In this document: piece after piece, positions 25,227-63,485 of the stretch
Layout of the letters: each line of letters begins with the position of its first letter
Position numbering within the stretch: the stretch's first letter is position 1
From: a virus
IMG/VR virus record: IMGVR_UViG_3300030098_005409
Direction: 5' to 3' (one strand)
DNA length: 64,000 nt
Translations under genes and position numbers: made by a program
The notes under the pieces: model-generated
The model's database searches: none
What the model saw: the letters and a program-made list of their open reading frames with translations, nothing else
Told to the model about the DNA's origin: nothing

Positions 25227-26069
25227 TTATTTTACTCCTTTAACATATTCTTCTAAATCGTGTCTGGGGTTCCACCCAGTCATCTCGATGGTTTTTGATA
25301 TATCTGCTAGGGTCTCGCGGGCTTCGCCAGGACGCTGCGGTATGTACTGTTTTGTGCCTCCGAACATATCCGCCAATTCATTAATTGAATTGTTAGTTCC
25401 AGTTCCTAAGTTGTACACGTCTCCTCGCCAAGCGCCTTTGGAAATAGCAATCAGCCCAGCGCATATATCGTACACATGCGTAAAGTCTCGTCGTTGCTCT
25501 CCATCTCCAACAATCGTTAATGGCTTCCCGTTTTTTGTCTGCTCCTCAAAGATAGCTACAACTGGGGTGTATTGTCCTATTAAGGGATTGCGAGGTCCAT
25601 ACACATTAAAGAATCTGGCAATTCCTGTTGTTGTTCCATACACCTCAGAGTACATTTTACAAACTTCCTCTCCCTGCCATTTTGCGAAGGCATATGGATT
25701 CAAATACACGCCACCGTAAAAAGAACTTGACCCTGCGTATACTACTTTACAATTATTTTTTCTAGCATACTCGCAGACAATTGCTGTTCCAAGCGAATTG
25801 TTCTCACAGGTGTATAACGGGTCTTCAAAACTTGGCTGAATTCTTGACTCCGCAGCCAAATGAAATATGACATCTATATTTTTTACTACATCCGTTGTTA
25901 GAACATTTTGAAACTTATCAAAATAATACTCAACTTCGTCACGACAATACTCTTTCTTCCCGGAAGAAAGGTCATCCACAACAGTTACATTATATCCTTC
26001 TTTTACCAATATATCTACCAGATTGCTACCTATAAATCCGCAGCCGCCAGTTACCAATGCATTAATCAT
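25227..26069 (-). CDS. NAD-dependent epimerase/dehydratase (UDP-glucose 4-epimerase-like)
   Basis: TGGCGFIG Rossmann motif, GSSS, YAFAK (YxxxK), RFFNVYGP. Confidence 0.9.
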   Translation of the reverse strand: MINALVTGGCGFIGSNLVDILVKEGYNVTVVDDLSSGKKEYCRDEVEYYFDKFQNVLTTDVVKNIDVIFHLAAESRIQPSFEDPLYTCENNSLGTAIVCEYARKNNCKVVYAGSSSFYGGVYLNPYAFAKWQGEEVCKMYSEVYGTTTGIARFFNVYGPRNPLIGQYTPVVAIFEEQTKNGKPLTIVGDGEQRRDFTHVYDICAGLIAISKGAWRGDVYNLGTGTNNSINELADMFGGTKQYIPQRPGEARETLADISKTIEMTGWNPRHDLEEYVKGVK

Positions 26070-27000
26070 TCGTTTTTATTCCTCTCGCATTTTCATAATT
26101 TTTAGTAAACCATTCGCACACTACTTTAAGGGCTTCTTGAAAATTAGTATACTCGTTGGGAGCCCATCCCAAGTTCAGCAATTTCTCGTTGGACGATGGT
26201 TTTCTGAACTGACCGGATGGTCGGTTTACATCCCAAATAATTTCCCCACTATAACCAAGCACCGATGCTATTAATTTTGCAGCGTGTGCAATAGAATATT
26301 CCATGGTATTCCCAATATTGATGGGGTGTTTGCCATCATACTTATCTAATAAAAATACCAAAATTTTAGCGGCGTCATCAGAAAAAGTAAACTCTCTTAG
26401 CGGTGAACCATCGCCCCATAGCACTACTTCTTTATTAAACCTCTTCGCTTCATAAATTTTCCTTATCATCGCAGGCAAAACGTGAGATTGATTTAGGTCA
26501 AAGTTGTCATTTATTCCAAATAGATTGTTAGGAACCGCTGTAATGCAATTAAGACCATATTGTTCCCTATAAGCACGGGACTGTACATCCAGCATTCTTT
26601 TAGCGTAAGCATACGCGTAGTTTGAGTGATGTGGCGGCCCAGAATGAATCTGCTCTTCAGTCAAAGGATAGGCGGCATCATCTGGATATACACAAGTGCT
26701 TAGAGTTGACAAAACTTTTTTGGCGCCACATACTCTCGCGGCTTCCAAAACGTTTAAATTAATTTTAGCATTATCATGATAAAAAAGACCCTTTTCCCTC
26801 ATATTAGCCCCAAGTCCGCCGATGCGGCCGGCTAGATGGATTACAGCATCAGGCTGTACCTTCTTAAAAACATTCTTTGTTTCTCTGAAGCTTCTTAGGT
26901 CAACATCTTTACTTGACAGGTAGGTTGCATCAGGTAGTACCCCGTTTAGTGCGGTTCCTAAAAGTCCCGTGCCACCAGTAACTAAAATTTTATTATACAT
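26062..27000 (-). CDS. fcl: GDP-L-fucose synthase
   Basis: TGGTGLLG, HLAGRIGG, STCVYP, YAYAKR, PNNLFG, WGDGSPLREF. Confidence 0.9.
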   Translation of the reverse strand: MYNKILVTGGTGLLGTALNGVLPDATYLSSKDVDLRSFRETKNVFKKVQPDAVIHLAGRIGGLGANMREKGLFYHDNAKINLNVLEAARVCGAKKVLSTLSTCVYPDDAAYPLTEEQIHSGPPHHSNYAYAYAKRMLDVQSRAYREQYGLNCITAVPNNLFGINDNFDLNQSHVLPAMIRKIYEAKRFNKEVVLWGDGSPLREFTFSDDAAKILVFLLDKYDGKHPINIGNTMEYSIAHAAKLIASVLGYSGEIIWDVNRPSGQFRKPSSNEKLLNLGWAPNEYTNFQEALKVVCEWFTKNYENARGIKTND

Positions 27001-27036
27001 TGTAAAATATACCCGTATGACTAAAGGAAAAGGACA

Positions 27037-28005
27037 CTATAACTTATTCATCCAACTTTCTATCATCTCATCTAGCATTGTGTGAAAAGTGTACTCTGGC
27101 TCCCAACCTAGTACCTCTCTGGACTTGTCGGAGTCCCCTTTCAGGTACTTAAGCTCTTCTGGGCGCATAAATTTAGGATTTTGCACCACATACTCTTTCC
27201 AATCTAAGTCAAGTGAGGTAAAGACATACTCAACCAAATCCCTAACTGACCAAGTCTCTCCAGTTGAAACTATCCACTCGTCGGCCGTTGGATGATTTAC
27301 TATCTTATGCATTGCTTTCACATAATCTTTTGAATGACCCCAGTCTCTATACGAATCAAGATTGCCAAGCTCTAATTTATCTCGCAATCCTTTTTTAATT
27401 TCAACTGCACATTTTACAACCTTGTTAGTTACGAAGTTCGATCCTCTTCGCGGAGACTCATGATTAAACAAAATCCCGTTACAGGCGTGCAGACCATACG
27501 CATGTCTGTAGTGTCTAACTAAATTGTATGCCAATAACTTAGCGCACCCATATGGACTCACAGGAGTCATTGGCGTCGTGAGCCTCTGCACACCATCATC
27601 ATCTACTGAATTTCCAAACATCTCGGATGATGAGGCTTGATAAAACTTAGCTCGCGGACATACTGTTCGGTATACCTCTAGCATGTTAAGTACACCCAAA
27701 GCGTTTGTTTGTATGGTATATGATGGTACATCAAAGCTAACCCTTACGTGACTCATGGCAGCAAGATTGTAGATCTCATCTGGCATCACGTCGCTCATAA
27801 TTCGATGTAGAGAAGGATAGTCCGTTAAATCTCCATAATATGTTTTAATTTTAGATCTCACACTTTTAAGTCGACTGTCTTGGTTCTCAGACACAGACAA
27901 TCTCCTAATAATTCCGTGTACTTCATATCCTTTTTCTAGTAGGAACTCTGTGAGATAGCTCCCATCTTGTCCAGTGATTCCTGTTATTAACGCTTTCTTT
28001 TTCAT
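27037..28005 (-). CDS. gmd: GDP-mannose 4,6-dehydratase
   Basis: ITGITGQDGSYL, YNLAAMSHV, QASSSEMFG, SPYGCAK, GILFNHESPRRG, RDWGH. Confidence 0.97.
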   Translation of the reverse strand: MKKKALITGITGQDGSYLTEFLLEKGYEVHGIIRRLSVSENQDSRLKSVRSKIKTYYGDLTDYPSLHRIMSDVMPDEIYNLAAMSHVRVSFDVPSYTIQTNALGVLNMLEVYRTVCPRAKFYQASSSEMFGNSVDDDGVQRLTTPMTPVSPYGCAKLLAYNLVRHYRHAYGLHACNGILFNHESPRRGSNFVTNKVVKCAVEIKKGLRDKLELGNLDSYRDWGHSKDYVKAMHKIVNHPTADEWIVSTGETWSVRDLVEYVFTSLDLDWKEYVVQNPKFMRPEELKYLKGDSDKSREVLGWEPEYTFHTMLDEMIESWMNKL

Positions 28006-42806: not shown

Positions 42807-44786
42807 TCAGCTGCTCGATTCTTGTTCTTGATACACGGCCAGATAGGTTTGGAATATCTCCCTTTCTTGCTTCTTTTTCCACGAGTTGTGTTCTACATTT
42901 GTAGAGACACCTTTAGGATTGAAATAATAAACTCCTAAAGTTTCAGGGTGCTTCTTGAATACGACACCTTCAAATGCACATCTCAGCCACATATCCCAGT
43001 CTGCAGCGCTGCGATATTTTTGATTAAAGTAGCCATACTTACTGTGCAGATCTTTCTTCCACATTGGGTTATTGTGTGGCAAATTACCTCTTAACATCGC
43101 TTCTTTAGAAAATTGTTCAAAATTATATTTCTGACTTGTGCTTTTATCTATATCTTCCCATTGCATATTGGGTTCATGAGTAATGTACGAATCATTATAC
43201 ACTAAGTCGACCCCGGGGCTAGAGAACAGAAGTTTTGCCTGTTTTTCTAGAGCGTCTGGGGCTCGACGGTCATCACAGTTAACATTAGTTACGTACTCCC
43301 CAGCCGACATCTTGATCGCCATATTCCAAGTTTCATAAAGGCCCGGGTCTTCTTCAAGCCTCTTGTATACAATATTGTTTGGATAACGCTCTACATACTT
43401 AAGAATAATTTCCTCTTCATCATCACCGGGTTCGTTTGCGTTCAAAATTATCCATTCGCACTTATCTTCAAACACAGTTTGTCTTGTAGTATCCTCAAGC
43501 AATTGTTCTATGTATTCGGATGCCTTATAGACAGAGGTTATTAAAGATATTTTTGGCAGATCCTCTGTATTAACGGCAACTATTTTTTCTCCATATACTA
43601 ACTCAGAAAACTGATGATACATATCTTTGTTTGTAAATTTGTTTAATATATGATCCTGTAAGACTCTTGCTTCCTTGCGGTAGTGAGTTTCTTTAGTCAG
43701 GACGTCTTTTAGGGCGTTCTTATACGACTTTTCTTTTGCAAAAGCCCACATAGAATCTTTTTGTATGACCCCATCCCACACGGCGCTGGGCTGTACTGTC
43801 TTAATATCGTAATCAACTTTCACGACGCGGGGGTAGTTTTTGCCCTTCTTGTTTGGCTTACAAATAAAATCCATCTGTCCGGACCAAGTTGTCGTAATTA
43901 ATGGCAATCCATGGTAGGCAGCTTCAAAAAGCGGGAGGCCATAACCTTCGCCGTGGCCAATATTAATCATTGCCTTCATTGTCGGATGTTTGTAGAGCCA
44001 CGCCAAGTTCCCAGGAGACACTTCACCATGAATTAGATATACAGAGCACTTACGATCCTTATAGGGGGCTAGAAGCGCCTCTAAGCGCGCCTGTGTATAC
44101 TCGCGGTCCATAACTGAATCAGACGCCGTGTTGGTTTTAACAACCAAGCCAACATTTTCCTCATCAATAAACGCCTCAACAAACCACTTAATAGTGTTAT
44201 CTAAATTCTTTCGCGGACCCCACTGGGCAACTGTAAGAAAATTTTTGCTGGTTTTGAAATCAACCTTCACCTCTTCGGATTCATGGAATCTAACAGGATA
44301 ATTAACCGTCGTGACGGGAACTTGTAGTCCCCAATTTTTATGTTCATTGCCACTATCATCTTTTATGTCATACTTTGTTTGTTCAAAGACTTTTTTTGAG
44401 TGATTTGAGACAACAATTATTTTATCAACCGTCTCGTTAGACTTAGCAATCCATTGTGGAGAGACCTTGGTTGTTTCAATTCCGGCCGTATACCCGATAT
44501 TCACGGGTGCAATTTTTTCAAACTCGTTTGGCACTGTGATCTGTAGTGAAACATCAAACTGACCTCCTTGTTGGATGTATTTTTGCGTCTTGAGTGTCGC
44601 TTCATGAATAAAGTTAGTTTCTTCATCATCGTTTGTAATTTGGCCTGTTCGACCCCACGGAATATTGATGATATATATATCAAAAAGATCCGGACGTGAT
44701 CGCAAAGATCTAAGAGCAAAACGAGATTGCTCTCCATAGCCCGATCGGGAAAGAACTGGACCTTTTATTAAAACTTTTTTTAACAT
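42807..44786 (-). CDS. fused glycosyltransferase (GT4/GT-B N-terminus + GT2 C-terminus)
   Basis: RSGYG...RKNL...HGEGYGLPLFEA (GT4); SLITSVYK...NVNCDD...DWDMWLR (GT2). Confidence 0.88.
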   Translation of the reverse strand: MLKKVLIKGPVLSRSGYGEQSRFALRSLRSRPDLFDIYIINIPWGRTGQITNDDEETNFIHEATLKTQKYIQQGGQFDVSLQITVPNEFEKIAPVNIGYTAGIETTKVSPQWIAKSNETVDKIIVVSNHSKKVFEQTKYDIKDDSGNEHKNWGLQVPVTTVNYPVRFHESEEVKVDFKTSKNFLTVAQWGPRKNLDNTIKWFVEAFIDEENVGLVVKTNTASDSVMDREYTQARLEALLAPYKDRKCSVYLIHGEVSPGNLAWLYKHPTMKAMINIGHGEGYGLPLFEAAYHGLPLITTTWSGQMDFICKPNKKGKNYPRVVKVDYDIKTVQPSAVWDGVIQKDSMWAFAKEKSYKNALKDVLTKETHYRKEARVLQDHILNKFTNKDMYHQFSELVYGEKIVAVNTEDLPKISLITSVYKASEYIEQLLEDTTRQTVFEDKCEWIILNANEPGDDEEEIILKYVERYPNNIVYKRLEEDPGLYETWNMAIKMSAGEYVTNVNCDDRRAPDALEKQAKLLFSSPGVDLVYNDSYITHEPNMQWEDIDKSTSQKYNFEQFSKEAMLRGNLPHNNPMWKKDLHSKYGYFNQKYRSAADWDMWLRCAFEGVVFKKHPETLGVYYFNPKGVSTNVEHNSWKKKQEREIFQTYLAVYQEQESSS

Positions 44787-46036
44787 TAAAACACCTTTAC
44801 TTCGTATGCATCATAGCCCTTGCGGGTTTCCCAAGAGCCTTTTTCTTCGTATATTGAGGTGAACAAATCATCCCATGTTTGAATAAACTTATCAAATCCA
44901 AATAAATCTTCTGACCATGCGCGGCCGGCGAGGCCAAGTTCTCGTCTGGCTTCAGGAGTCATTTCATAGAGTTCCACTAAAGCATTCACAAAGTCTTCTT
45001 TAGATAAACGATCTTCATAAATATATGGTACTTGTTGAGATCCGATTATTGCTTTTGATACCGGTTGTAGTCCAATCCCAAAGAACTTCTCACCATCAGT
45101 AACTTGATCCTGAAGGCCCCCAGTCATGTTAACTAGTATCGGTGTTCCACAGGATAAAGATTCCAATGTAGAAAGCCCAAATCCCTCGGCATCAGAAATA
45201 CACACAGTGAGATCTGCCATATTGTACATAGCAGCTAAATCTCCTGGTCCAACCTTATCTCGTGAAAATAAGACCTCTCCATTTGTCAGCCCTAATTCAT
45301 GAATTATAGCTTCCAAGTCTTGACCGTGCTGATCGTTGACATCGGTATGCATAATAAGACACGCTTTATCGTGTCCAACCTTATCTAAGAATTCCTTAAA
45401 CCACCAGATTAAGGTCCCTGATTGTTTCCGGCGCGCATTTCTGCTATTCCAAAAACAAACAAATTTATCATCTAAATTTTTAGAAGTTCTCCAGTTTTTT
45501 ACTTCTTGAGCAGCTGCCGGCTTGAATATATCCCCATCAACAGCGTGTGGGATGTAAGAGGAATCCACTTCCGGCGCCACGGTCGCGACTATATCATGCG
45601 TTACTTTTGAAATACAAGCAACGTGGTCGTTTGAAAGATAATACTTACGATTAAATTTCGGGTATGGGTAATTATCCCAAACGTGATAGTAGACCATTGG
45701 CACATGTGTTCTAACTTCGTTCTCAATCGCCCATAGCCACTCGTAAAACCTAGGGTCGGTCATAAACCACAAAATATCTGGCTTTTGCTGGTGAATCATC
45801 GCGCGAACCATATCATGGTTGCCATAGCCATCGACTGGCCATATAACCCAATCATCGCCCCACTGCTCAGTTCTCTGAGGGTTATGATTTGGATGTTTAA
45901 TCGCGCCTCCGAAGGAAACAAACTGGTACTTGCCAGTCTTAAGCATCCCTTCGATAATGTATTTTGTTTGAGTTCCCACACCACTTGGAGACAGTGGGTG
46001 ATCACTGATTGTGAATATCTTAATCTTATCTGACAT
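44786..46036 (-). CDS. glycosyltransferase family 4
   Basis: SDHP...SGVGTQ; RNARRKQ; AEGFGLSTLESLSCGTP. Confidence 0.9.
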   Translation of the reverse strand: MSDKIKIFTISDHPLSPSGVGTQTKYIIEGMLKTGKYQFVSFGGAIKHPNHNPQRTEQWGDDWVIWPVDGYGNHDMVRAMIHQQKPDILWFMTDPRFYEWLWAIENEVRTHVPMVYYHVWDNYPYPKFNRKYYLSNDHVACISKVTHDIVATVAPEVDSSYIPHAVDGDIFKPAAAQEVKNWRTSKNLDDKFVCFWNSRNARRKQSGTLIWWFKEFLDKVGHDKACLIMHTDVNDQHGQDLEAIIHELGLTNGEVLFSRDKVGPGDLAAMYNMADLTVCISDAEGFGLSTLESLSCGTPILVNMTGGLQDQVTDGEKFFGIGLQPVSKAIIGSQQVPYIYEDRLSKEDFVNALVELYEMTPEARRELGLAGRAWSEDLFGFDKFIQTWDDLFTSIYEEKGSWETRKGYDAYEVKVF

Positions 46037-47679: not shown

Positions 47680-48999
47680 TCACAAATTTTGTGCGGCGAA
47701 TGTAGCAACTCTTGAACGCTCGCCCTTTAGAAGAGTTACGTGAGCAGCCAACTCAAAGTCTTTAAATTTCTCAACAGCATGAGTCAAGCCGTTCGTAGTA
47801 GCATCTATGTAAACGTTATCAATCTGTTCTACATCGCCCGTCAGCACAATCTTGGTTCCTTCACCAACTCTTGTTATTATAGTCTTTAATTCGTGAGTTG
47901 TCAAGTTTTGTGCCTCATCAATGATAATAAAAGCCTTTCCAATAGAACGACCGCGGATATAAGTGATCGCTTCAATCTCAATCGTGCCCTTCTCCAAGTA
48001 CATGTCAAGCGTAACCTTGTCATTGCCCATTAGAGTCTGAAGATTATCCTGAATCGGCATCAACCAGGGAGACATTTTTTCTTCCATCGTACCCGGTAAG
48101 AAGCCAATGTCCTTTCCTAGCGGCTGTACGGGTCTAGAAACGATTACACGGGTGTAGGTGGATGTTCTCTCGTCTAAGGTCTGTTCAAGGGCCGCAGCGA
48201 TCGCACAGAGCGTCTTACCGCTACCTGCTTTACCAATGGCTGTGATAACCTCAATGTCTGGGTCCATAAGGGCGTCTATCAAAAACGACTGCTCTTTGTT
48301 TCTCGGCTTGATGCCCCACACGCCCCTCTTTTCTTTTCGCAGCTGCCGTACGGGCGTATGTTCATTGATAAATCTTCCCAACGCAGTCTTTTTTTCATTT
48401 GCATTAGAAATAAGCATTACATACTCATTTGTTTTAAGATTAGTGTCTTCGAGATAAACGTCTTTTTTATCATAAAACTGATCTATTATTCCATCATCTA
48501 CTAAAACCTCTGAAAACCCAGTGTATATACTATCGCTATCATCGACAATCTGTTGATTTTGGAAATCCTCACACGGCAGCCCAATAGCATCTGCGGTAAC
48601 TCGCATGTTAATGTCGCGAGAAACAAGAATAACTTTTCTTTCAGATTCTCTTGCGACTGCTCTCGCAGTCGCGATAATAAGATGATCAGGGATCTTAATA
48701 TCTAAATCTTGTGGCAGATCATCTCTGTCTATATCTGCGGCAGATACTGATTTAACAATCCCCAGTCCTTGGCGAATGCGGACACCTTTTTTAAGGTTAC
48801 CCTTAGAGCGAAGTTCGTCCCAAATGCGTATAATCTTCCGCGCCTGGACTCCTACAAGGTCCTGACGCTTCTTGTGTTTGTCAATTTCCTCAAATACTTT
48901 TAAAGGGACATATACATCATTGTTTTTAAAAGCGTATATTGCGTCTGCGTTCGTTAAATAAACACTAGTATCTAACACATAAATCTTCTTACGGCTCAT
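47680..48999 (-). CDS. phoH: PhoH-family ATPase with N-terminal PIN domain (PhoH2/YlaK type)
   Basis: PIN: VLDTSV...EEID...PDHLI...SRD; PhoH: GKAGSGKT, GFLPG, RGRS, DEAQN, GDVEQID. Confidence 0.95.
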   Translation of the reverse strand: MSRKKIYVLDTSVYLTNADAIYAFKNNDVYVPLKVFEEIDKHKKRQDLVGVQARKIIRIWDELRSKGNLKKGVRIRQGLGIVKSVSAADIDRDDLPQDLDIKIPDHLIIATARAVARESERKVILVSRDINMRVTADAIGLPCEDFQNQQIVDDSDSIYTGFSEVLVDDGIIDQFYDKKDVYLEDTNLKTNEYVMLISNANEKKTALGRFINEHTPVRQLRKEKRGVWGIKPRNKEQSFLIDALMDPDIEVITAIGKAGSGKTLCAIAAALEQTLDERTSTYTRVIVSRPVQPLGKDIGFLPGTMEEKMSPWLMPIQDNLQTLMGNDKVTLDMYLEKGTIEIEAITYIRGRSIGKAFIIIDEAQNLTTHELKTIITRVGEGTKIVLTGDVEQIDNVYIDATTNGLTHAVEKFKDFELAAHVTLLKGERSRVATFAAQNL

Positions 49000-49782: not shown

Positions 49783-49860
49783 TGGTCGGGGCGGTAGGAT
49801 TCGAACCTACGACCCCCTGCTCCCAAAGCAGGTGCGCTAACCAGACTGCGCTACGCCCCG
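49783..49860 (-). tRNA. trnP: tRNA-Pro(UGG)
   Basis: full cloverleaf CGGGGCG/CGCCCCG, anticodon arm CCTGC-TTTGGGA-GCAGG, GGTTCGAAT, encoded CCA. Confidence 0.97.
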
Positions 49861-50292
49861 AATAATCTCCCATGTTTGATCTGGCAATAACTCAACCTCA
49901 GCCAAGAACTTGCCGGGATCTATTTTAATCCATTGATTGTCAGCTATTAAGGATAAAAAGTAAGTACCATCTTTTCTTTCATATAGAAAGTACTTATTTC
50001 CTATTACCGGCTGGATATTGAAATCTGCTTCGTAAATAATTTTAGACACATCCACTCGTTCTTTTACTTCTTTTACTTGTTCCATAATTAATTCAGCTTG
50101 CTTTCTTAGTTTATCTATTTCTTTTTCAGCATACCTCTCGGCTGCTGAGATGGCACGTCCCTTGATTGAGGACATGTCATTTGGTCTAATCGCGGGCGCT
50201 GCGGTATTCGTTCCATATGGCTTAATATTAGCATCAAATTCTTCTGTTTCATAGTTGTATACAACGTTGTCAGGAAATTTTTCTTTTGACAT
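49837..50292 (-). CDS. DUF2452-like protein; last 8 codons overlap tRNA-Pro
   Basis: PYGTNTAAPAI...YEADFNIQPVIGNKYFLYERKDG..FLSLI...W recalled as DUF2452. Confidence 0.7.
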   Translation of the reverse strand: MSKEKFPDNVVYNYETEEFDANIKPYGTNTAAPAIRPNDMSSIKGRAISAAERYAEKEIDKLRKQAELIMEQVKEVKERVDVSKIIYEADFNIQPVIGNKYFLYERKDGTYFLSLIADNQWIKIDPGKFLAEVELLPDQTWEIIRGVAQSG

Positions 50293-50296
50293 TCTC

Positions 50297-50704
50297 TTAC
50301 CATCGATGGTCTTTACCAGACCAGTCCTTAAACTCTTCTTTGCCTCCTCTTACACTCCAATCGGAATCTATTGTTAGTTTTGATGATAGTCCGCCTCTGG
50401 GATTGAAGTCCATTTCTATTCGAAGCCTGTTAGGGTCATAAACACTAATCAAGTCGTCATATACAACATTTATTAATCTTTCGTATGAAAGAAGTCGGTT
50501 TCGAAAATCTTGAAAATATTTTTTCAAAGACTTTAATTCAATAATGGTGTCTTTTGGATAAAAGACAATCCAGGCGGTTGCAAAATCGGGCTGATCTTTA
50601 ACTCCAATAAACGTAATTTCTGGATTTTTAATATTAATCTCATATCCATCCCCTGACGGATTTGGTAGAGTTTTTAGAATTGTTTTATCACTCCACTGTC
50701 TCAT
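50297..50704 (-). CDS. queF: QueF-like T-fold protein lacking the catalytic cysteine
   Basis: PNP...PE.T....QPDFA...ELKSLK.Y...FRN....E...DDL...P...F.PRGG; no Cys anywhere in the protein. Confidence 0.8.
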   Translation of the reverse strand: MRQWSDKTILKTLPNPSGDGYEINIKNPEITFIGVKDQPDFATAWIVFYPKDTIIELKSLKKYFQDFRNRLLSYERLINVVYDDLISVYDPNRLRIEMDFNPRGGLSSKLTIDSDWSVRGGKEEFKDWSGKDHRW

Positions 50705-50729
50705 ACTACTAATGCCTCAATATATCTCA

Positions 50730-50805
50730 TGGTGGAGATGACAGGATTCGAACCTGCGACCTGATGCGTGCAAGGCAACTGCTCTCCCAACTGAGCTACA
50801 TCCCC
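50730..50805 (-). tRNA. trnA: tRNA-Ala(UGC)
   Basis: GGGGATG/CATCTCC acceptor stem with G3:U70, anticodon TGC, encoded CCA; U28:U42 mismatch. Confidence 0.95.
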
Positions 50806-50810
50806 ATATA

Positions 50811-50886
<76 letters not shown>

Positions 50887-52647: not shown

Positions 52648-52960
52648 TGGTGGAGGTGGTGGGAATCGAACCCACGTCCAAAGCATATCCAACTTCAAGT
52701 CATTCACAGGTATAGTTTGTTTCTCTAAACAAACAAAGTATCAAATTCGATTCAATCCGCTCAAAAAAGCAAAAGCGTTTTTTTGGTTGTGTTCTTCTTG
52801 GACACCCGGCGAAGAACAACCGGGGATTAAGCAGCTAGTGCTAAACCGTAATCTGCGTCGTTTGCAGTTATATGTTTCTAACTAAAGTTTTATGTGATTG
52901 AGTTAGCTGTCACAACCTGCACTATCCATCTTCCTTACCCTGTCGAAACCTGTCACCCCC
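52648..52960 (-). ncRNA. ssrA: tmRNA (313 nt), tag (A)ANDADYGLALAA
   Basis: 5' GGGGGTG...TTCGAC; 3' GACGTGGGTTCGATTCCCACCACCTCCACCA; G3:U pair; tag ORF 52865-52827 after ATAACT. Confidence 0.95.
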
Positions 52961-54173: not shown

Positions 54174-56333
54174 TTAGCCCACCGATATTCCTAGTAAATA
54201 GTCCATTACTTCAGTAACTAGCTCTTCATCTTCTTTAATGAAGTTCTTGGGATGCCTCTTCTTTTTCTTCTCAGAACCGGCCACTTTCGGCGCGCGCATC
54301 CCAAGGGGTAGAGAATAACCAGCGACGTTGCCACCGGCCATTGAAGACATTTCCTCAAGCTTTCCTTGGAGTATATCATATATTTCCTGATTATAAAATC
54401 CCATAATAGCTTCAAAATCTTCTTGAGAGGCACCCTTGAGAGCCTTTCTTAAAGTAGTTCCTGACATCTCACCAAATCCTGGGACATCAATCTCAACGTG
54501 CGGAGCTACTGCGATGTAACCATGCTTGTCAAGCCCCACAAGTTCTTCTCCGGGCCTGTATGTCTTGTAGTAAGCAGGAGTGCCTCTTTTGGTCATGCCG
54601 TCTAGATTGGCAAACCTGGGACTATCACGCATATCTTTGCCGCCAACAGCGAAAACAACAGCCGTTGATTCTGGGTCGAAGTTCTGAGTAAGTTCCACCG
54701 CCTGATATGGGTTCCTGCTCATCACAATCTTATCAGCAGGCACGCCGTGGGCGACCATAATCTTTTTCTTTTCTTCAAAGTCTAGGGGAGACTTAGGACC
54801 CATCTTATTGGAAGTTACGATAAAAGTATTCTCGTCGCCAAATTGATCAGCAAGCGCTTTATAAGTTGCATAATGGTGACGACCCATAGGCTGGAATCGT
54901 CCGGGATAAATGGCGATAACTTTCTTCTGATCTTGTTCATTCAGAGCCCAATTGACTGCCTCAGCCAAAGCAATCTTTACTTGACTTGCCTCACGAACCA
55001 AAGAAGTGATAGGAGCACCGCCAAGAAGGTTTTCATAAAGATCTTGATTCTTATTTATAACAGAGGGGAGATTACGAGACCACTCCAAAAGAGGCTTGGT
55101 CACAGAGAAACCATCAGATCCCCAGTATACAGTAAGACTTTCGGTTTGCTGGAACTTGGCGCCCTTATCAACAGCAAAGTTTGCCTTGCTGAATTCTAGA
55201 CGATCAACAAATTTGACACCGTTACCGATGTGATCAACAGCAACATAACCCTCTGGATTACTTGCGACAAGATCGCCTGAGCCATCGTCAATAAAATGCT
55301 TTGTGTTATACACAGCGTTGTTATACTTGGCGATGAATATATTTTTTGCCTCGAATAGAAGCCGCGAGACTTTGAAAAGGTTGAGGATATCTTCTTGCTT
55401 GCTATCGAAGGCTGCAAGCATTTCTTGACCTTTTTGGGTTGCTCGCATTTTTCCTTTTTCAGACTTTAGCTTATCAATTCTTTTTTCTAGACGACCTGAA
55501 TACCAACGCTTGAAACCTAAGAAAGATTTAGCTGGATCCTCAAGGAATTGACCACCCTTGATTTCAGAGTTAATGTAGATGTTAAGAAGATCCATCGGCA
55601 GACCTTCATAGTCAATCTTTTCATTGACCTGATCCGCGGCTGAAACTAATTCCTTCACCTTTGCTTCTTCATCTTCAGTTAAAGTAACAGTTCCAGTATC
55701 GTCTGTAAAATAAGCATCATCAACCCATACACCGGGAACCTTATTTAGACCACTTACATCAGCGCCGAAAGAAGCGCCACCGTCCAAACTATCATAAGTT
55801 GTATGAAAAACAATACCGAACTTTGATTCAGCGATCTCTTGTCCAAGCTTGGATTCAACTGGTGCGGCATAAGTAATAGTATTTGGCTTGAAAGCATAAT
55901 GAGGCTCGCCATCAACGTCGATGGTGCTAATCATCTCATCGTCAAACATAAAGTCTCCCTGGAGAATCTTTTGGATTCCTAGGGGAGGCAAGTATTGAAG
56001 TGCTTTTGTAAGCTTATCGACCAAACCCGGAGCGTGTCCGTGATTTCTCCGAACATCTTCGGGGGTATAGTTTATCTTTGGTTCTTTATTGAAGATAGAT
56101 TTGGTTCCAACAAAGAACTTACCATTTTCTGGATTAATACCAGCAAAAATAGCCGGCGCGCCATCCCACTTGACAGAGGTCTTTACTCTTGAATCAACAT
56201 TACCTTTTAACTCTTCTAACAACTCAAGCAGAAAAGCCCGAGCCATATCATATCCCTTTGGACCCTGTGTTAAAACAAGCTCTTCCAGGTGAGTTAAGTG
56301 TGTGTTTGCTTTGCCTTCATCCAGAAGAGACAT
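54174..56333 (-). CDS. fusion of ligase-type nucleotidyltransferase domain (DUF6267-like as recalled) and HIGH-class cytidylyltransferase-like domain
   Basis: VKWDGAP (KxDG), PEGYV, VKFVDR; C-terminal half YPGRFQPMGRHH...MSGTTLR. Confidence 0.7.
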   Translation of the reverse strand: MSLLDEGKANTHLTHLEELVLTQGPKGYDMARAFLLELLEELKGNVDSRVKTSVKWDGAPAIFAGINPENGKFFVGTKSIFNKEPKINYTPEDVRRNHGHAPGLVDKLTKALQYLPPLGIQKILQGDFMFDDEMISTIDVDGEPHYAFKPNTITYAAPVESKLGQEIAESKFGIVFHTTYDSLDGGASFGADVSGLNKVPGVWVDDAYFTDDTGTVTLTEDEEAKVKELVSAADQVNEKIDYEGLPMDLLNIYINSEIKGGQFLEDPAKSFLGFKRWYSGRLEKRIDKLKSEKGKMRATQKGQEMLAAFDSKQEDILNLFKVSRLLFEAKNIFIAKYNNAVYNTKHFIDDGSGDLVASNPEGYVAVDHIGNGVKFVDRLEFSKANFAVDKGAKFQQTESLTVYWGSDGFSVTKPLLEWSRNLPSVINKNQDLYENLLGGAPITSLVREASQVKIALAEAVNWALNEQDQKKVIAIYPGRFQPMGRHHYATYKALADQFGDENTFIVTSNKMGPKSPLDFEEKKKIMVAHGVPADKIVMSRNPYQAVELTQNFDPESTAVVFAVGGKDMRDSPRFANLDGMTKRGTPAYYKTYRPGEELVGLDKHGYIAVAPHVEIDVPGFGEMSGTTLRKALKGASQEDFEAIMGFYNQEIYDILQGKLEEMSSMAGGNVAGYSLPLGMRAPKVAGSEKKKKRHPKNFIKEDEELVTEVMDYLLGISVG

Positions 56334-57960: not shown

Positions 57961-58155
57961 CTATCTCTTCAGTGCTTTGTCCAAAGCGTCTCTAACACCC
58001 TCAGCAGCCAGCCATTTAGGCTGTTGCCAAAACGGCACCAGCATGTGTCCAAGCATTCCTAATCCTGCTAAAAGCAACAAACCAGATAATCTTGATGAAC
58101 GCTTAAGGTGCGCCAACCAGCCTTCGTCTTTAAAATGTGCCCAATCCCAACTCAT
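57961..58155 (-). CDS. small membrane protein (DUF6356-like as recalled)
   Basis: W.AHL..S..LSGLLL.AG...LGHMLVPF. Confidence 0.55.
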   Translation of the reverse strand: MSWDWAHFKDEGWLAHLKRSSRLSGLLLLAGLGMLGHMLVPFWQQPKWLAAEGVRDALDKALKR

Positions 58156-58478
58156 TATAATTTACCTTTCCCTGGACCTTTTTCGTATGAAATACTCTTG
58201 AATGCTTTTTCAAGATAATCTGCTGCTTTGGTGATCTTTGATTGAACCCAAGGCTCAAGGTTTTCGTCATCATGGAGCATATCGTGAAGTTGCTGTGCTT
58301 GCGCAGCCATATGGTAAAGTGACCGCTTGGCCATGTTGCCTTCGTATCCGTCTGGATCCTTCTCGTAGTTGTTGGAGGCTGGATCCAGCGTATTCATCTG
58401 TGGCATTTCAAGCAAAACAGAAGAGCCGTTCAACTCTTCAGCAATCATCTTTTTAAGTTCGTTTTTTGAGATTTTCAT
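58155..58478 (-). CDS. conserved phage protein, candidate head-internal
   Basis: MKISKNELKKMIAEEL leader; EGNMAK..LY...LHDML...LEPWVQSKITKAADYL module. Confidence 0.75.
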   Translation of the reverse strand: MKISKNELKKMIAEELNGSSVLLEMPQMNTLDPASNNYEKDPDGYEGNMAKRSLYHMAAQAQQLHDMLHDDENLEPWVQSKITKAADYLEKAFKSISYEKGPGKGKL

Positions 58479-59185
58479 TATTTCTGTTCCTGTTGTTTAG
58501 CAGAGACTTTCAAAAGGTTTTTAAGAACAGCCTGCAGTGCGTTACGATATCTTATAAGGTCATCTTTTTCAGCTATATCAGTTAAGATCTTTTCAATCTG
58601 CACCAACATACCTCTTTCTTTATCATCAACCCCTCCTAAAGCATCGCCTTTTGCAATTGCTTTGGATTTTTCCAGTTCGCCTTTCGCTTGTGTTTGTTGA
58701 GTAACAATTCCGCTCCCAAAACCTTTAAGGGCATCATCTTGCTCCTCAAGCCCAACACCGCCACCAAAATCAGCATAACCCATGCTGTAGTAATTCATAG
58801 CTCCGGATCCACCGGTGCCATATGGCTGCTGACTCTTGGCAGGAGCCACGACTCTTTGGTCAGGCATTGGATGAGCGCCAGCATCTTCTAGGTCGTTCAG
58901 AGCCTTTCTAAGGCACGCAGACGCCTTGAAAGCGTGCTCATAGGCGCCGTCATAGATCGGCTCATCAAGAGCCTCTACGAGCTTCTCAGTAGCCTCTCTA
59001 GCCACGAGAGCGAGATCATATAAGTTGTTTGCCTCTGGATCTCCTTTGTCCTGCTCCGGAGTCTCTGTATCGGCAGCAGGCATTCTGTGTGGAACGCCTT
59101 CAGGAGCAGATGGCTCGTTAATTCCGCCGCCTGTAAACATAGCTTCTTTTACAAGCGCTTGAAGTTGTTTATAATCAATAGTCAT
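58478..59185 (-). CDS. hypothetical protein, candidate head-internal
   Basis: 235 aa; leader ends LVKE. Confidence 0.7.
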   Translation of the reverse strand: MTIDYKQLQALVKEAMFTGGGINEPSAPEGVPHRMPAADTETPEQDKGDPEANNLYDLALVAREATEKLVEALDEPIYDGAYEHAFKASACLRKALNDLEDAGAHPMPDQRVVAPAKSQQPYGTGGSGAMNYYSMGYADFGGGVGLEEQDDALKGFGSGIVTQQTQAKGELEKSKAIAKGDALGGVDDKERGMLVQIEKILTDIAEKDDLIRYRNALQAVLKNLLKVSAKQQEQK

Positions 59186-59186
59186 T

Positions 59187-60344
59187 TTATCCCTTTACCA
59201 AGAAGCGATCAAATGTGCCCTTAAGATCGGCTAACTTATTTTCCTCTAGATTTCTCATCTTATCTTTTGCGACCGCCGCACGACCGCGACCCTGAGCAAG
59301 ATCTTTGGTTTTTTCAAGCTCTTGTGCCGCAGACCGGTCCGCACTTAGCTCCTCACCGGCTGCAAGCTGCAATTTGTCGTGGTGCTTCTCTGAGGGTAAA
59401 CCAGCCTTCTCGAACTTTTTAAGCATTCTGCGTAGGAGAACAAGATCGTCAAGTGCTGTCAGCGGACCAAGGAATTCAAGACCCATAAAAGTCCCGGCAT
59501 CAACAGGAGAAACGAAATTAAGAATAGCAAAAGCAGCTAAGAGTCGAAGTTTTGTTGGCGTGTCACGGTCGACGCTGGCCATAAACATGGCAGCCAAGTC
59601 GCGCCCACCGGGAAGATTTAGAAGCGCTTTCAAAACTGGGTTGCCTTTAGCTTCCTGTAGATCGCCGGTACCTAGCTTGTCGAGTAGTACATTTAAAACC
59701 TTGTCCTGCTCATCTTCTGGCATTGCTTCAATCGCATCTTCGGCAGTCTCAACTGGGTCTTTTGCCTCATCTAAGTCTTCCTTCTTAGAATCTTCTTTAG
59801 CGGCTTTTCTTGCTTTTTTGTTGGCGGCTTTCTTTTCGTCCTTGGTGGCATCTGGTGGTGTTTTTGCAACCTTAGAAGCTCTACCCATTGCCTCTTGTAG
59901 AGCTTCCTGAAGTTCTGTGTTAGACGACAATATAGACAAAAACTGCTCTCTAACGGCATCAACAATTAGGGCTGCAACCTCATCCGCTTGGTCTTTAATG
60001 ATTTTAGCAAATGCTCTTTGCATGAGTCCTTCAATTACATCTCCGTCAAATGGGATATCTGGCACAATCTTGGAGGCAATATCGTCTGCGTTCTCAATAA
60101 GGTGCGATTCTATCTGACGCGCAGCAATTCGTAAGAACAAACCAGCTGCAGCGTCCAGTACTGCTCCAGCGCTAGTGTTCTTAAAGGTTTCACTAGCAGC
60201 ATACCTCAGTGGCTCTTTAAAGTCCCCTATGTTTTTTAGTACGCCCTTTGCAGTAGCGGTTAAACTATTTTCGTTTTTCAACTCTTCCGAGACCATTTGT
60301 GCTATTTGGTCGATTATTCTTTTGTCCATGGTGGATTCTCCCAT
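59187..60344 (-). CDS. multimodular protein with DUF1232/YkvA-like hydrophobic segment
   Basis: AILNFVSPVD...ALDDLVLLRRML; alternative start 60329 has GGAG SD. Confidence 0.65.
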   Translation of the reverse strand: MGESTMDKRIIDQIAQMVSEELKNENSLTATAKGVLKNIGDFKEPLRYAASETFKNTSAGAVLDAAAGLFLRIAARQIESHLIENADDIASKIVPDIPFDGDVIEGLMQRAFAKIIKDQADEVAALIVDAVREQFLSILSSNTELQEALQEAMGRASKVAKTPPDATKDEKKAANKKARKAAKEDSKKEDLDEAKDPVETAEDAIEAMPEDEQDKVLNVLLDKLGTGDLQEAKGNPVLKALLNLPGGRDLAAMFMASVDRDTPTKLRLLAAFAILNFVSPVDAGTFMGLEFLGPLTALDDLVLLRRMLKKFEKAGLPSEKHHDKLQLAAGEELSADRSAAQELEKTKDLAQGRGRAAVAKDKMRNLEENKLADLKGTFDRFLVKG

Positions 60345-60348
60345 ATGT

Positions 60349-60356
60349 TAATTAGT
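60349..60356 (-). promoter_or_regulatory. putative late-promoter motif ACTAATTA
   Basis: 4 nt upstream of ATG 60344; includes upstream stop. Confidence 0.35.
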
Positions 60357-61335
60357 CTTTTTTCTTTTGTAATCGTTTAGTTTTTTCTTTTGATGCTTCT
60401 TTTCTTTTCTCAGCGTGATCAAGAACTTTCTTCAATCTGGCTTTGGTCTTAGGGTCCTTAGCATTCTGATAGGCAGCCCGTACACGCTGATGGATAAGAT
60501 TAATAATCTGTGACTGACGCTTGTGAGACTTTGATTTGAAGGATTTCTTTGATAAGGTATCCTTTACATCTTGAACTGTTCGGAACTTTACTGACACTGT
60601 ATCACTTGGATCCTCGTCGGTGTAAAGTCTGCGTCCTGAACCTTTTGGTTTCTTGCCAGTTCCAGTCTTAGGATCCTTACCTTCTTCGGCCTTGATACAA
60701 TTTCTGTACGTCTTGCCGTACATCTTCTTAGTTTTGCGTTTGGGGTGAGTTTTATAACCCTTCTGGCAACGTTCTTGCAGTCCATCAGGCTCCATATATG
60801 GATGATCTTTAAGATACTTTTTCATCTTAGGTGCTGGTTCAATCCCAGCTTCTTGAAGTTTATTCGCCCACATAGACAGCATTGTCTCACGTATTTCCTC
60901 ATCTCCCCGGACAAAGTTTGCTTTTATGCCTGCTTCTTTGGCCGCCGCAATCTCTTCTTCGTCATCATCCCAATGTTCGATAACACCAAGAGATAAAAGA
61001 GTTTCAGCTTTCAAATCTCCATTTGTGTAGTGGATAGACTTGACGGGAAGATTCATACCGGCAACCAACTCTTCTGGCTCTGGTGCTGTATCCCATGGAT
61101 ACTTGTCTCCTGTGCGTTTCGATCGGGAAGTAACAATATAAACAGTTTCACCGGCAGCTGCGAGTTCTCTTAGTTTGGCGATGTTCTCTTCGTGGGGCTT
61201 GTCGTATATGGTGCTGAATTCAGGATCTTCAGGATCTGTCTTATACTTGATAAGTGTCTCGTCATAATCAAACGAGTAAGCGCCTTTCTTTTCTTCGTTT
61301 AGGAAGTTCTTCCAGTTTTCAAGTAGGAGTTTCAT
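60352..61335 (-). CDS. tagged protein: HAD phosphatase domain plus basic C-terminal modules
   Basis: MKLLLENWKNFLNE; FDYDET (DxDxT), IVTSR, K, WDDD. Confidence 0.75.
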   Translation of the reverse strand: MKLLLENWKNFLNEEKKGAYSFDYDETLIKYKTDPEDPEFSTIYDKPHEENIAKLRELAAAGETVYIVTSRSKRTGDKYPWDTAPEPEELVAGMNLPVKSIHYTNGDLKAETLLSLGVIEHWDDDEEEIAAAKEAGIKANFVRGDEEIRETMLSMWANKLQEAGIEPAPKMKKYLKDHPYMEPDGLQERCQKGYKTHPKRKTKKMYGKTYRNCIKAEEGKDPKTGTGKKPKGSGRRLYTDEDPSDTVSVKFRTVQDVKDTLSKKSFKSKSHKRQSQIINLIHQRVRAAYQNAKDPKTKARLKKVLDHAEKRKEASKEKTKRLQKKKD

Positions 61336-61742
61336 TTCTTAGATACCTTCCAGCCGCCCATCATACCTCCAGGCATATCATATTCTTCAACATTTACAGA
61401 ATCATCCTGCTGCAGTCTTGTCCAGATTTTGGTGCCAGCCGGCGATTGCGATGGATCACTATATAGCACCCCCACATGATCGAGAAGCCACTTATAGAAA
61501 TCAGTCATATAGAAAGCAGCGTCTGATTCTTTTTTTGCATATTTGACTCTCACGCCATCTTCGTGAGGAACTACGTCCAACGTAGCTTTTGTTTTCCCCT
61601 CGGGATCCATTACAGAATAAACTATAACGTCGCCGCCGAAAGGACTAGATTCGCTAGACTGCAACACCTGATGTTTTCCAAAAGAACCCACTTCCTGGTT
61701 TTCTACCAAATACTTCCGCCAGTTTTCAAGGATTAGTTTCAT
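61332..61742 (-). CDS. tagged protein with possible GNAT-like domain
   Basis: MKLILENWRKYLVE; LYSDPSQSPAGTKIWTRL. Confidence 0.6.
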   Translation of the reverse strand: MKLILENWRKYLVENQEVGSFGKHQVLQSSESSPFGGDVIVYSVMDPEGKTKATLDVVPHEDGVRVKYAKKESDAAFYMTDFYKWLLDHVGVLYSDPSQSPAGTKIWTRLQQDDSVNVEEYDMPGGMMGGWKVSKK

Positions 61743-61744
61743 GA

Positions 61745-62182
61745 CTAGTCCTTCCCGATATTACTTCTGTCCTGCCATTCGTGAGATGTTTCATCTGTAT
61801 CAATAGGGCCACCCGCAGCCCATGTATAGCACGTGCGCGCGCTGTGGCATTTAAAATGATGCATCCAGCAATAACCTAGCCGACCTTCTTCATCTTCAAT
61901 GGGCCCTGGAAAGCATTCGTCCATTCTTGGCGAGATATCAAACGCCGCGCAATTATTGCACATTGATTGTTTTGCAACCTCAACGGTTGTGTTCCAGTGC
62001 TCTGCCAGTCTATCATAGTATGCTTCATCAGCAAGATTAAGGGGTCCGTATTGAATGTGCTCTGCTTTGATGGCAGAATCACGGTTCTTTGTGTTTAATT
62101 CTAAATCCTGTGTGGCAGGGGGGCAAATGTATTTCTTTGCCTCTGTCAAAAACCTTTTCCAGTTTTCAAGTAGGAGTTTCAC
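61745..62182 (-). CDS. tagged Cys-rich protein (possible Fe-S/HiPIP-like or Zn-binding)
   Basis: MKLLLENWKRFLTE (GTG start); CNNC...GYC......C.....CYTW; 7 Cys. Confidence 0.7.
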   Translation of the reverse strand: MKLLLENWKRFLTEAKKYICPPATQDLELNTKNRDSAIKAEHIQYGPLNLADEAYYDRLAEHWNTTVEVAKQSMCNNCAAFDISPRMDECFPGPIEDEEGRLGYCWMHHFKCHSARTCYTWAAGGPIDTDETSHEWQDRSNIGKD

Positions 62183-62565
62183 TCTACTCCTCCAAACATT
62201 TTCTTAAACTTCTCGGGTGTCTCAGCTTCCTCGGAGACATCAAGGATCTTTGCCTTTATTGTTTCAACCTCTTGATTGATTGCTTTTTGTAGCCGATGGT
62301 TGCCATCCAAAACATACTTGAGCTGCCCATCTTTCTTGATGACTATAATAGGAAACTCTAAGCTCGCTGCTGCTACTCGCTCCTCACCTCTGGTTGGAAG
62401 AGGGGGTATTTGTTTGGAAAGTTCTAAAACATTAATGTCAATAGTTTTGTCTCCCAAGAAATCATCTATCTCTCCAAGTGTAACCTTTCCCTCATCATTT
62501 TCCCACGATGTATCGCGCCAACTTTCTGTAAGATACTGCCGCCAGTTTTCAAGGATAAGTTTCAT
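62179..62565 (-). CDS. tagged ParB/Srx-like domain protein
   Basis: MKLILENWRQYLTE; FPIIV...VLDGNHRLQKA; start set at the tag Met. Confidence 0.75.
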   Translation of the reverse strand: MKLILENWRQYLTESWRDTSWENDEGKVTLGEIDDFLGDKTIDINVLELSKQIPPLPTRGEERVAAASLEFPIIVIKKDGQLKYVLDGNHRLQKAINQEVETIKAKILDVSEEAETPEKFKKMFGGVE

Positions 62566-62570
62566 TTGTT

Positions 62571-63485
62571 TTACCACTTCTTACAGGACCAGTAGCGTGC
62601 CTTTGTTTTGGGTCCTGGGTTATCACAGTTGTGTCGAGCCCGGAAAGACTTGCGTCTCTTTGGATTAGACTTCTTGATTCTCATCTTCTTATCACCGAAA
62701 TTAACCTTCTTTACATTTCCGGTTTTCGGATCTTTGACATAAACTTTGAATTTTTTAACATCTCCACGCGTGGGTTTGTTGAGAGTAACCTTGCGACCCT
62801 GGTATTCTGCCTCGTAGACAAGATCAGGGCAGCCACAGGTAGCTGTATCTAGTTGTTCTACCAAGCAAGCAACACACGCTGGGGTACCGTCATCAAGGAA
62901 AGCTTCTGTTAAGTAAGGAAGAATATCGTTCTCCAAAAGATGACGATTAACCTCTTCTGCGATAATGCCATACAATTCGTCTCTGTTCATATCAAGATTC
63001 TCCTTCTTGGCGCCTTTCTTGCCCCAAGACTTGCCTTTTCCTTTTTCCTTACAAGCCCCCGGAGTTGGGCGGCAAGCAGGGTACTTAGAGCGCTTCTCGC
63101 CCTTCTCGCGGCCACAAGACTTATAGCCACCCTTGCCGTCTGGGGCATTACAATCAACCCAGCCACTCTTCTTTCCCTTGGCGCCTTTGCGTCCAAACCA
63201 ATCTCGGAGGCTACTTTCTTTACTAGATTCAGTTCCGGCTTTTTTCTTTTTGGCTTCTTCAAGAAGGTCTTCATACTCTGTGTTCTCTGCAAGATCGGCA
63301 TCTTCGATCTCCTCTTTGACACCCTTCCAGATTTTACCGGCTCGACAGCGCACAACGGCGCCGGAAGCATATGCTGAGGGCCATACATCATATTTACGTT
63401 TAGCGATTCTTGTGCAACGATCATCTTTTTCTTCGATGATGTCTTCTTCTAGATAAGAACTCCAGCTTTCAAATAAGTACTTCAT
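62571..63485 (-). CDS. tagged multimodular basic Cys-containing protein
   Basis: MKYLFESWSSYLEE; modules DRC..IAKRKYDVWPSAYASG, GWVDC...CGR...YPACRP, KKFKVYVK...NFG...RRKSFRARHNC. Confidence 0.75.
   Translation of the reverse strand: MKYLFESWSSYLEEDIIEEKDDRCTRIAKRKYDVWPSAYASGAVVRCRAGKIWKGVKEEIEDADLAENTEYEDLLEEAKKKKAGTESSKESSLRDWFGRKGAKGKKSGWVDCNAPDGKGGYKSCGREKGEKRSKYPACRPTPGACKEKGKGKSWGKKGAKKENLDMNRDELYGIIAEEVNRHLLENDILPYLTEAFLDDGTPACVACLVEQLDTATCGCPDLVYEAEYQGRKVTLNKPTRGDVKKFKVYVKDPKTGNVKKVNFGDKKMRIKKSNPKRRKSFRARHNCDNPGPKTKARYWSCKKW

Follow-up and report, generated by a model that had tools for sequence, protein, structure and literature searches.

The window analysed here is a 64-kb stretch (64,000 nucleotides (nt)) of IMG/VR virus record IMGVR_UViG_3300030098_005409, a piece of an uncultured marine T4-like phage in which the long open reading frames (ORFs) all lie on the minus strand; a search for a close cultured relative of the window found none. 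Five successive minus-strand genes, running from 63485 to 60352, open with the shared N-terminal tag MK[LY][LI][LF]E[NS]W..[FY]L.E and are then wholly unlike one another (Table 1). A six-frame regular-expression search finds exactly five copies of the tag in the window, each forming an ORF start, and the five N-termini quoted in a first-pass annotation of this DNA stand in the sequence exactly as given there. Neighbouring tagged genes abut or share 4 nt, and the array is an unbroken polycistronic block almost without intergenic DNA. The start of gene 4 was set by homology to the ATG at 62565; the ORF as called reaches a GTG at 62577.

Table 1 Features of the tagged array, the rest of the window and related contigs. 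Positions refer to the window unless another locus is named
Feature	Position	Strand	Description
Tagged gene 5	62571..63485	-	304 amino acids (aa); diverged tag MKYLFESWSSYLEE, start 63485
Tagged gene 4	62179..62565	-	128 aa; tag MKLILENWRQYLTE, then ParB/Srx-like domain
Tagged gene 3	61745..62182	-	145 aa; GTG start, tag MKLLLENWKRFLTE, then Cys-rich domain
Tagged gene 2	61332..61742	-	136 aa; tag MKLILENWRKYLVE, payload of no known family
Tagged gene 1	60352..61335	-	327 aa; tag MKLLLENWKNFLNE, HAD phosphatase domain, lysine-rich C-terminal half
42-nt tag-coding units	61294-61335, 61701-61742, 62141-62182, 62524-62565, 63444-63485	-	
Two acidic proteins	58478..60344	-	235 aa and 385 aa; between array and 107-aa gene
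Downstream gene with second leader type	58155..58478	-	107 aa; leader MKISKNELKKMIAEEL
Baseplate wedge gene	13876-15669	-	
Giant ORFs	3856-12339, 16130-21007	-	2827 aa and 1625 aa; one on either side of the baseplate wedge gene
VanY-domain protein	21994-23340	-	448 aa
Sugar-modification island	26062-28005, 42807-46036	-	two nucleotide-sugar epimerases, two glycosyltransferases
PhoH-like gene	47680-48999	-	follows the sugar-modification island
tRNA-Pro, tRNA-Ala, tRNA-Thr	49783-50886		adjoin the tmRNA gene
Transfer-messenger RNA (tmRNA) gene	52648-52960	-	full length; Rfam RF00023, 133 bits
DUF6267 protein	54174-56333	-	719 aa
Tag remnants upstream of tagged genes	L020 (G003 74911-74988), L021 near 10719, L024 near 4805		
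Ribosomal protein S21 homologue	L122:2887-3108	+	same slot in L123, L124, L128, L131
Conserved membrane protein	L122:1019-1336		~105 aa

Four of the five payload labels in the first-pass annotation (HAD, ParB/Srx, Cys-rich and basic Cys) hold up against PHROGs, motifs and composition. The payload of gene 1 matches phrog_415 (E 1.2e-08) and contains the DxDxT motif of HAD enzymes as FDYDET. That of gene 4 matches phrog_17560 at 6.6e-10 and ParB-like PHROGs at 2e-4 to 2.5e-3, and carries the motif DGNHR. The gene 5 protein has an isoelectric point of 9.3 and 68 Lys and Arg residues; a Cys/WPSAYASG region lies near its N-terminus, and its C-terminal domain is that of phrog_7595. Six cysteines of the gene 3 payload are invariant across 8 relatives, and its distant phage homologues were labelled HiPIP by their depositors; a Pfam scan of this payload gave no match, and an AlphaFold2 model of its family was too poor for a fold search (mean predicted local distance difference test score 41). 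The GNAT-like label of gene 2 is only a weak lead from a language model, in which GNAT clusters rank 13th and 30th with scores of 0.92-0.93, and searches with Pfam and PHROG hidden Markov models (HMMs) returned neither GNAT nor any other family. Sequence searches of the PDB with payloads 2 and 3 found no match. Payload 2 has seven database homologues, all of which were recovered; three of them were read as sequence, and each of the three carries the tag. Separately, Actinomycetia phage DSL-LC01 (locus L152, 63051-68722) encodes a 244-aa protein whose C-terminal part is distantly homologous to the Cys-rich payload, and the gene for this protein directly precedes three genes annotated as capsid maturation protease.

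The tag is 14 residues long, with the consensus MKLLLENWRKYLNE. Its boundary was measured without circularity by taking residue shares past position 8 from 112 copies constrained at residues 1-8 alone. In these copies position 9 is Arg in 88%, position 11 is Tyr or Phe in 88%, position 12 is Ile, Leu, Val or Met in 92%, position 13 is variable and position 14 is Glu in 78%; taken over the full set of 269 copies, the share of aliphatic residues at position 12 is 97% and that of Glu at position 14 is 91%. There is no conservation from position 15 onward, a sharp end after Glu14. With an aliphatic residue at P3, a free P2 and Glu at P1, the tag therefore ends in aliphatic-x-Glu, matching the L/I-x-E after which the T4 prohead protease gp21 cleaves (PMC9026906), and L4-L5-E6 provides a second site of this type within the tag. 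Hydrophobic residues 4, 5, 8, 11 and 12 share one helical face, the hydrophobic moment of the consensus is 0.55, a value attained by 4% of shuffles, and a low-confidence AlphaFold2 model places a helix over residues 2-16. This amphipathic peptide, with charged or polar residues at positions 2, 6, 7, 9, 10, 13 and 14, is unlike a Sec or Tat signal peptide, in which a basic N-region precedes a hydrophobic core of some 10 residues or more, and HMM scans of the array neighbours in the window found no maturase of the kind that acts on ribosomally synthesized and post-translationally modified peptides, nor any other conserved modifying enzyme. As an aside, the four tags that contain ENW alternate along the array (61294-62565), genes 1 and 3 carrying the LLL/K9/F11 variant and genes 2 and 4 the LIL/R9/Y11 variant, an arrangement expected by chance 1 time in 3.

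The tag pattern is real and highly non-random. Searched without a start-codon requirement, the motif occurs 274 times in 1.1 Mb of collected loci plus the window, and 273 of these copies are at ORF N-termini; the single other copy is at the C-terminal end of an ORF, directly ahead of the next tagged gene. Counted with the strict motif, eight genomes have 2-7 copies each, always on the coding strand, and a reversed-pattern control gives zero matches. A degenerate DNA pattern of the tag is found in at least 120 IMG/VR viral contigs, and the same pattern in 596 Gb of prokaryote genomes occurs on only 5 short contigs of metagenome-assembled genomes (MAGs), which are probably misbinned phage DNA. 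One 53-nt string taken unchanged from the window has no match in IMG/VR. A 116-kb MAG contig with the tag, NHHP01000006.1, labelled Ca. Pelagibacter sp. TMED166, is likewise probably a misbinned phage genome fragment and not host DNA. Within the library of papers searched, there was none that gives the motif strings as protein sequence or describes the tag.

What follows the tag is diverse. Some genomes hold arrays of 6-12 tagged genes, and sorting the 239 complete tagged ORFs by payload gives 101 families, of which 61 are singletons. The three commonest families are all represented in the window: the HAD payload (29 members), the Cys-rich payload (15, the second largest) and the ParB/Srx payload. 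Family representatives show a mean column identity of 5% outside the tag. The few representatives with Pfam matches hit kinases, nucleotidyltransferases, NUDIX, Zeta toxin, HAD, GNAT, a papain-like toxin fold and HNH, and these matches include no core replication or structural enzyme. When a tag HMM was run over 688 ORFs, as the first-pass annotation had proposed, every strong match was N-terminal. Together with the 101 families, the hydrophobic moment and the aliphatic-x-Glu end, this bears out its description of a portable amphipathic label ending in L-x-E.

The tag belongs to T4-like phages. PF03420, the gp21-type Peptidase_S77, is encoded by 11 of the 13 large contigs that bear the tag and by all seven that are at least 90% complete (184-206 kb), so that no complete tag-bearing genome lacks an S77 protease. 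A gp23-type capsid protein is encoded in all four complete genomes checked. The 36 mid-size tag-bearing contigs are without exception fragments estimated by CheckV at 12-55%, consistent with genomes of about 180-200 kb, and no complete small genome with the tag was found. The head module itself lies outside the window, about 20 kb past its low-coordinate end as judged by synteny with G001, an 81-kb contig that matches the window at 75-86% nt identity and encodes a terminase, a portal and the PF03420 protease.

In 11 head modules examined, the variable proteins that flank the protease carry one of two leaders. The ENW tag or its second half opens proteins located before the protease (164 aa in G001 and 182 aa in G004) and proteins in the slot that gp22 occupies (356 aa in G004 and 297 aa in G008), and a second leader (..L..II.EE) is found on gp22-slot proteins in four other head modules. 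The clade protease itself begins MSKxLLRE[YF][YF]EL, resembling the first half of the tag, and a universal protein of ~145 aa after the protease opens with MKKSELKKLIKPLIKECIKE. The 107-aa protein downstream of the window's array shares the second leader, and nothing else, with the G001 scaffold-slot protein. Between that gene and the array, the N-termini of the two acidic proteins loosely resemble the second leader type, and it is uncertain whether they belong to the tag system. These leaders on head-module slot proteins link the tag to head assembly in a way that is suggestive only. When residues 24-199 of the clade protease (11-row alignment) were co-folded with residues 1-40 of the Cys-rich cargo (8-row alignment), the score was 0.00, which weighs neither for nor against binding. 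We also considered that the tag might mimic the conserved LLENQxK of the capsid protein propeptide, and dropped this idea as the tag HMM gives that segment no score.

Two other genes of the relatives' head module were noted. A homologue of ribosomal protein S21 (phrog_21469, E 4.9e-07) is located right after the scaffold-like gene. A conserved membrane protein of ~105 aa (MELLYFIL..YGLTQILVYG) is encoded just upstream of the prohead protease in 10 of 11 modules; T4 has no gene in this slot.

The closest known parallel is the capsid-targeting sequence (CTS) of T4, so far known on a few internal proteins. For IPII and IPIII the CTS is MKTYQEFIAE (Mullaney and Black 1996, as reviewed in PMC9026906, PMC9958956 and PMC3012670), in agreement with the first-pass annotation, which also gave the specificity of gp21 correctly. 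In the T4 record ipII and ipIII both open with this sequence and are identical over 30/30 nt, and ipI opens with MKTFKEF. According to reviews, residues 1-10 of IPIII are enough for head targeting, with positions 4 and 7 important for targeting and 8 and 10 for processing. The tag described here resembles this CTS in its N-terminal M-K start, its E6 with an aromatic residue just after and its terminal aliphatic-x-E, in heading proteins otherwise unrelated to each other, in T4-type phages that encode an S77 protease, and in the near-identity of paralogous tags in coding DNA. It differs in having 14 residues instead of 10 (one extra helical turn), with a conserved Trp8 and Arg9, and in heading at least 101 payload families, mainly acidic enzymes, instead of three small basic internal proteins. 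Moreover, the role of the T4 CTS was established by fusions and suppressor scanning, whereas the tag here is a putative signal.

The short N-terminal pro-segments that gp21 cuts from T4 prohead core proteins offer a further comparison. In the T4 record, with a hyphen at the cut, these read MNEPQLLIE-TW for gp21, MLKEQLIAE-A for gp22 and MAKINELLRE-S for gp24. The gp21 pro-segment LLIE-TW and the clade protease MSKxLLRE-YY resemble the first half of the tag (KLLLE-NW), and the second leader of the 107-aa gene (..KKMIAEE) resembles ..QLIAE of gp22; all of these are very short motifs that the tag HMM does not pick up.

We moderately favour the reading that MKLLLENWRKYLNE is the counterpart of the T4 CTS in this lineage, greatly expanded, and that its coding DNA doubles as a recombination junction. 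For the tagged proteins we infer targeting, cleavage and injection as follows. The tag would fold into a short amphipathic helix through which its bearer, whatever the protein, would bind to the scaffolding core while the prohead assembles. Removal of the tag would fall to the prohead protease of the gp21 (S77) type, which would cut after Glu14 and possibly also after Glu6 of L-L-E. The payloads thus freed would stay inside the head and be delivered to the host along with the DNA; for the window, this cargo would comprise the HAD phosphatase, the ParB/Srx-like, Cys-rich and basic proteins and one unassigned protein. The traits that can be tested at the sequence level all fit a T4-type CTS: the tag is terminal, amphipathic and portable, ends in aliphatic-x-Glu, is confined to T4-like S77-protease phages of ~180-205 kb and marks the point of gene exchange. 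The capsid-targeting interpretation offered in the first-pass annotation is thus partly supported.

Several observations weigh against this reading. Payloads are acidic in 74 of 101 families, unlike the basic internal proteins of T4, and five families have a membrane-like segment. Aligning the tag to MKTYQEFIAE takes a 4-residue insertion, with peptides too short for statistics, and among proteases of cultured phages even the nearest reach no more than 48% identity. The array is outside the head module, some 60-70 kb away by G001 synteny, and tagged genes are not clearly enriched there, with ~4 among ~70 head-module ORFs against ~4% estimated genome-wide. The T4 late-promoter motif TATAAATA was found 4 times where 4.9 were expected, and so gives no sign of late co-expression with head proteins, although it may not be the promoter of this lineage; sigma-70 and terminator scans were uninformative. 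No cultured phage was found with the tag: a tblastn search returned none, with a 21-aa query whose length gives little power, and Methylophilales phage Melnitz and Flavobacterium phage immuto lack it, with zero or chance-level matches to the tag DNA patterns. Finally, codons 3-5, 9 and 10 are far more uniform than the protein needs, and conservation is in part at the DNA level.

Some of these points would suit a tag that is never cleaved. A docking helix for a partner other than the prohead, such as a phage or host hub protein, a chaperone, a membrane or the nucleoid, could gather accessory enzymes in the infected cell, and it would also be portable, strictly terminal and amphipathic. On this account an array remote from the head module and from any late-promoter signal, the absence of clear enrichment near the protease and payloads that are mainly acidic soluble enzymes, able to work in the cytoplasm, would all be natural. 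What docking leaves unexplained is the stop of conservation at a Glu that follows aliphatic-x, the tag or half-tag on scaffold-slot proteins beside the protease and the likeness to T4 core-protein N-termini; nor was a candidate partner gene found adjoining the arrays. We regard docking as rather unlikely.

The conservation of the first nine tag codons as DNA, missed by the first-pass annotation, points to recombination at the tag. Within the array, DNA similarity sets in at the start codon and is lost beyond codon 14, and no conserved DNA was found upstream of the ATG among tagged starts. Codon choice is strongly skewed at codons 3-5, 9 and 10 (CTC 55%, CTA 69%, CTT 84%, CGA 56% and AAG 67%, respectively, against a background of 8-30%), and synonymous usage in codons 11-14 is at background frequencies. 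The second half of the tag is therefore conserved at the protein level, and the first half at the protein and DNA levels alike. A role in hiding the ribosome-binding site within mRNA structure was not supported: over the -30 to +30 region, tagged starts (n = 238) have a minimum free energy of -6.10, against -6.46 in 400 controls (p = 0.43), and pairing probabilities of tagged and control starts show small differences only.

The comparison of the window with G001 shows gene exchange with breakpoints at the tag. The whole of payload gene 2 is missing from G001, and the breakpoint is placed within the tag repeat because one G001 tag aligns to both flanking window tags. The cassette of gene 4 (ParB/Srx) is swapped in G001 for a different tagged payload of 76 aa, the orthologue of gene 5 opens with MKKLLESWDRFLNE, and payload 1 is present without its basic tail. 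The T-even internal-protein loci behave similarly: their products are diverse and counter host defences, and the CTS alone is conserved (PMC3012670). There, as here, payload genes vary between close relatives behind a constant leader; for the window and G001 the difference is the gain or loss of a single cassette plus a single swap. The systems differ in scale and in payload types, and any anti-restriction role of the payloads described here would be hypothetical. Under the CTS-like reading, the tags would also serve as recombination sites at which payload genes are gained, lost and swapped, since their first ~27 nt are conserved as DNA as well. In 3 of 238 contexts a second tag copy or remnant occurs at the C-terminal end of the ORF upstream of a tagged gene; such a remnant might be either a scar left by recombination or a tag at the C-terminus.

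Taken to its limit, this evidence would make the tag mainly a DNA-level junction, with ~27 nt at gene starts serving homologous recombination and the peptide largely a passenger. The codon skew, the indel and swap with breakpoints within tags, the upstream remnants and the 30/30-nt match of T4 ipII and ipIII all agree with such a junction. However, codons 11-14 keep their residues (Tyr or Phe, aliphatic, Glu) at background codon usage, diverged variants with other DNA such as MKYLFESWSSYLEE and MKKLLESWDRFLNE keep the residue pattern, conservation does not extend upstream of the ATG and the unit is always in frame at the start codon. As the whole explanation a junction is improbable, and it is compatible with the expanded-CTS reading without replacing it.

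The toxin-like payload families (Zeta toxin, papain-like toxin fold, HNH and kinases) and the protease-type motif at the end of the tag raise another option, a timing or turnover signal. The tag would then be a degron, or a pro-peptide that holds potentially toxic effectors inactive or short-lived until a phage or host protease cleaves it off in the cytoplasm. Yet a single 14-residue helix is unlikely to inhibit 101 unrelated folds, and the only protease of matching specificity known in the lineage is the prohead protease, which in T4 is active inside the prohead only (PMC9026906). We consider this option very improbable.

Another known parallel is the cleaved head and ejection proteins of the giant phages phiKZ, 201phi2-1 and SPN3US, in which many head-internal proteins are cut after Glu by a gp21-like protease, at S/A-x-E sites mapped by mass spectrometry (PMC9026906). 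Their cargo differs from the tagged proteins in having no single portable common leader. A stronger form of the expanded-CTS reading, which we put forward tentatively and rate as less probable than not, is that this clade pre-loads a large, fast-evolving arsenal of enzymes into the capsid, for injection with the DNA, by means of one portable bipartite 14-residue tag, the first half of which mimics the protease pro-segment and the DNA of which is the shuffling site. As part of the same tentative proposal, the arsenal would span at least 100 families, including kinases, nucleotidyltransferases, phosphatases, toxin-like folds and ParB/Srx nucleases, and would be what the effector repertoires of secretion systems are in other settings, in a phage version.

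How proteins localize to the scaffolding core of T4 is still described as 'mysterious', and the core's structure as unresolved (PMC9958956). If the expanded-CTS reading is correct, hundreds of tagged proteins in some 100 families would provide a data set on the residues that a targeting signal requires, and the tag would offer a second, orthogonal means of loading cargo into T4-type capsids. The payload list would be a catalogue of candidate injected effectors, for host take-over or counter-defence, in abundant uncultured ocean phages. Annotation would shift accordingly, as genes now read as auxiliary metabolic or hypothetical may encode virion cargo.

The remainder of the window contains several other features. 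The two giant ORFs that flank the baseplate wedge gene probably encode fibre or baseplate-associated proteins; a PHROG scan of the 1625-aa ORF returned no family. The 448-aa protein combines a VanY D-Ala-D-Ala carboxypeptidase domain (E 2.8e-11) with a weak tape-measure PHROG match and may be a tail-associated cell-wall hydrolase. Beyond the sugar-modification island and the PhoH-like gene is the phage-encoded tmRNA, for which ARAGORN predicts the tag peptide ANDADYGLALAA, a sequence that may give a hint of the host. The 719-aa protein joins a DUF6267 domain (E 4e-96) to a cytidylyltransferase-like part, and tblastn finds its relatives in 469 phage records, mainly those of cyanophages, pelagiphage HTVC008M and Melnitz.

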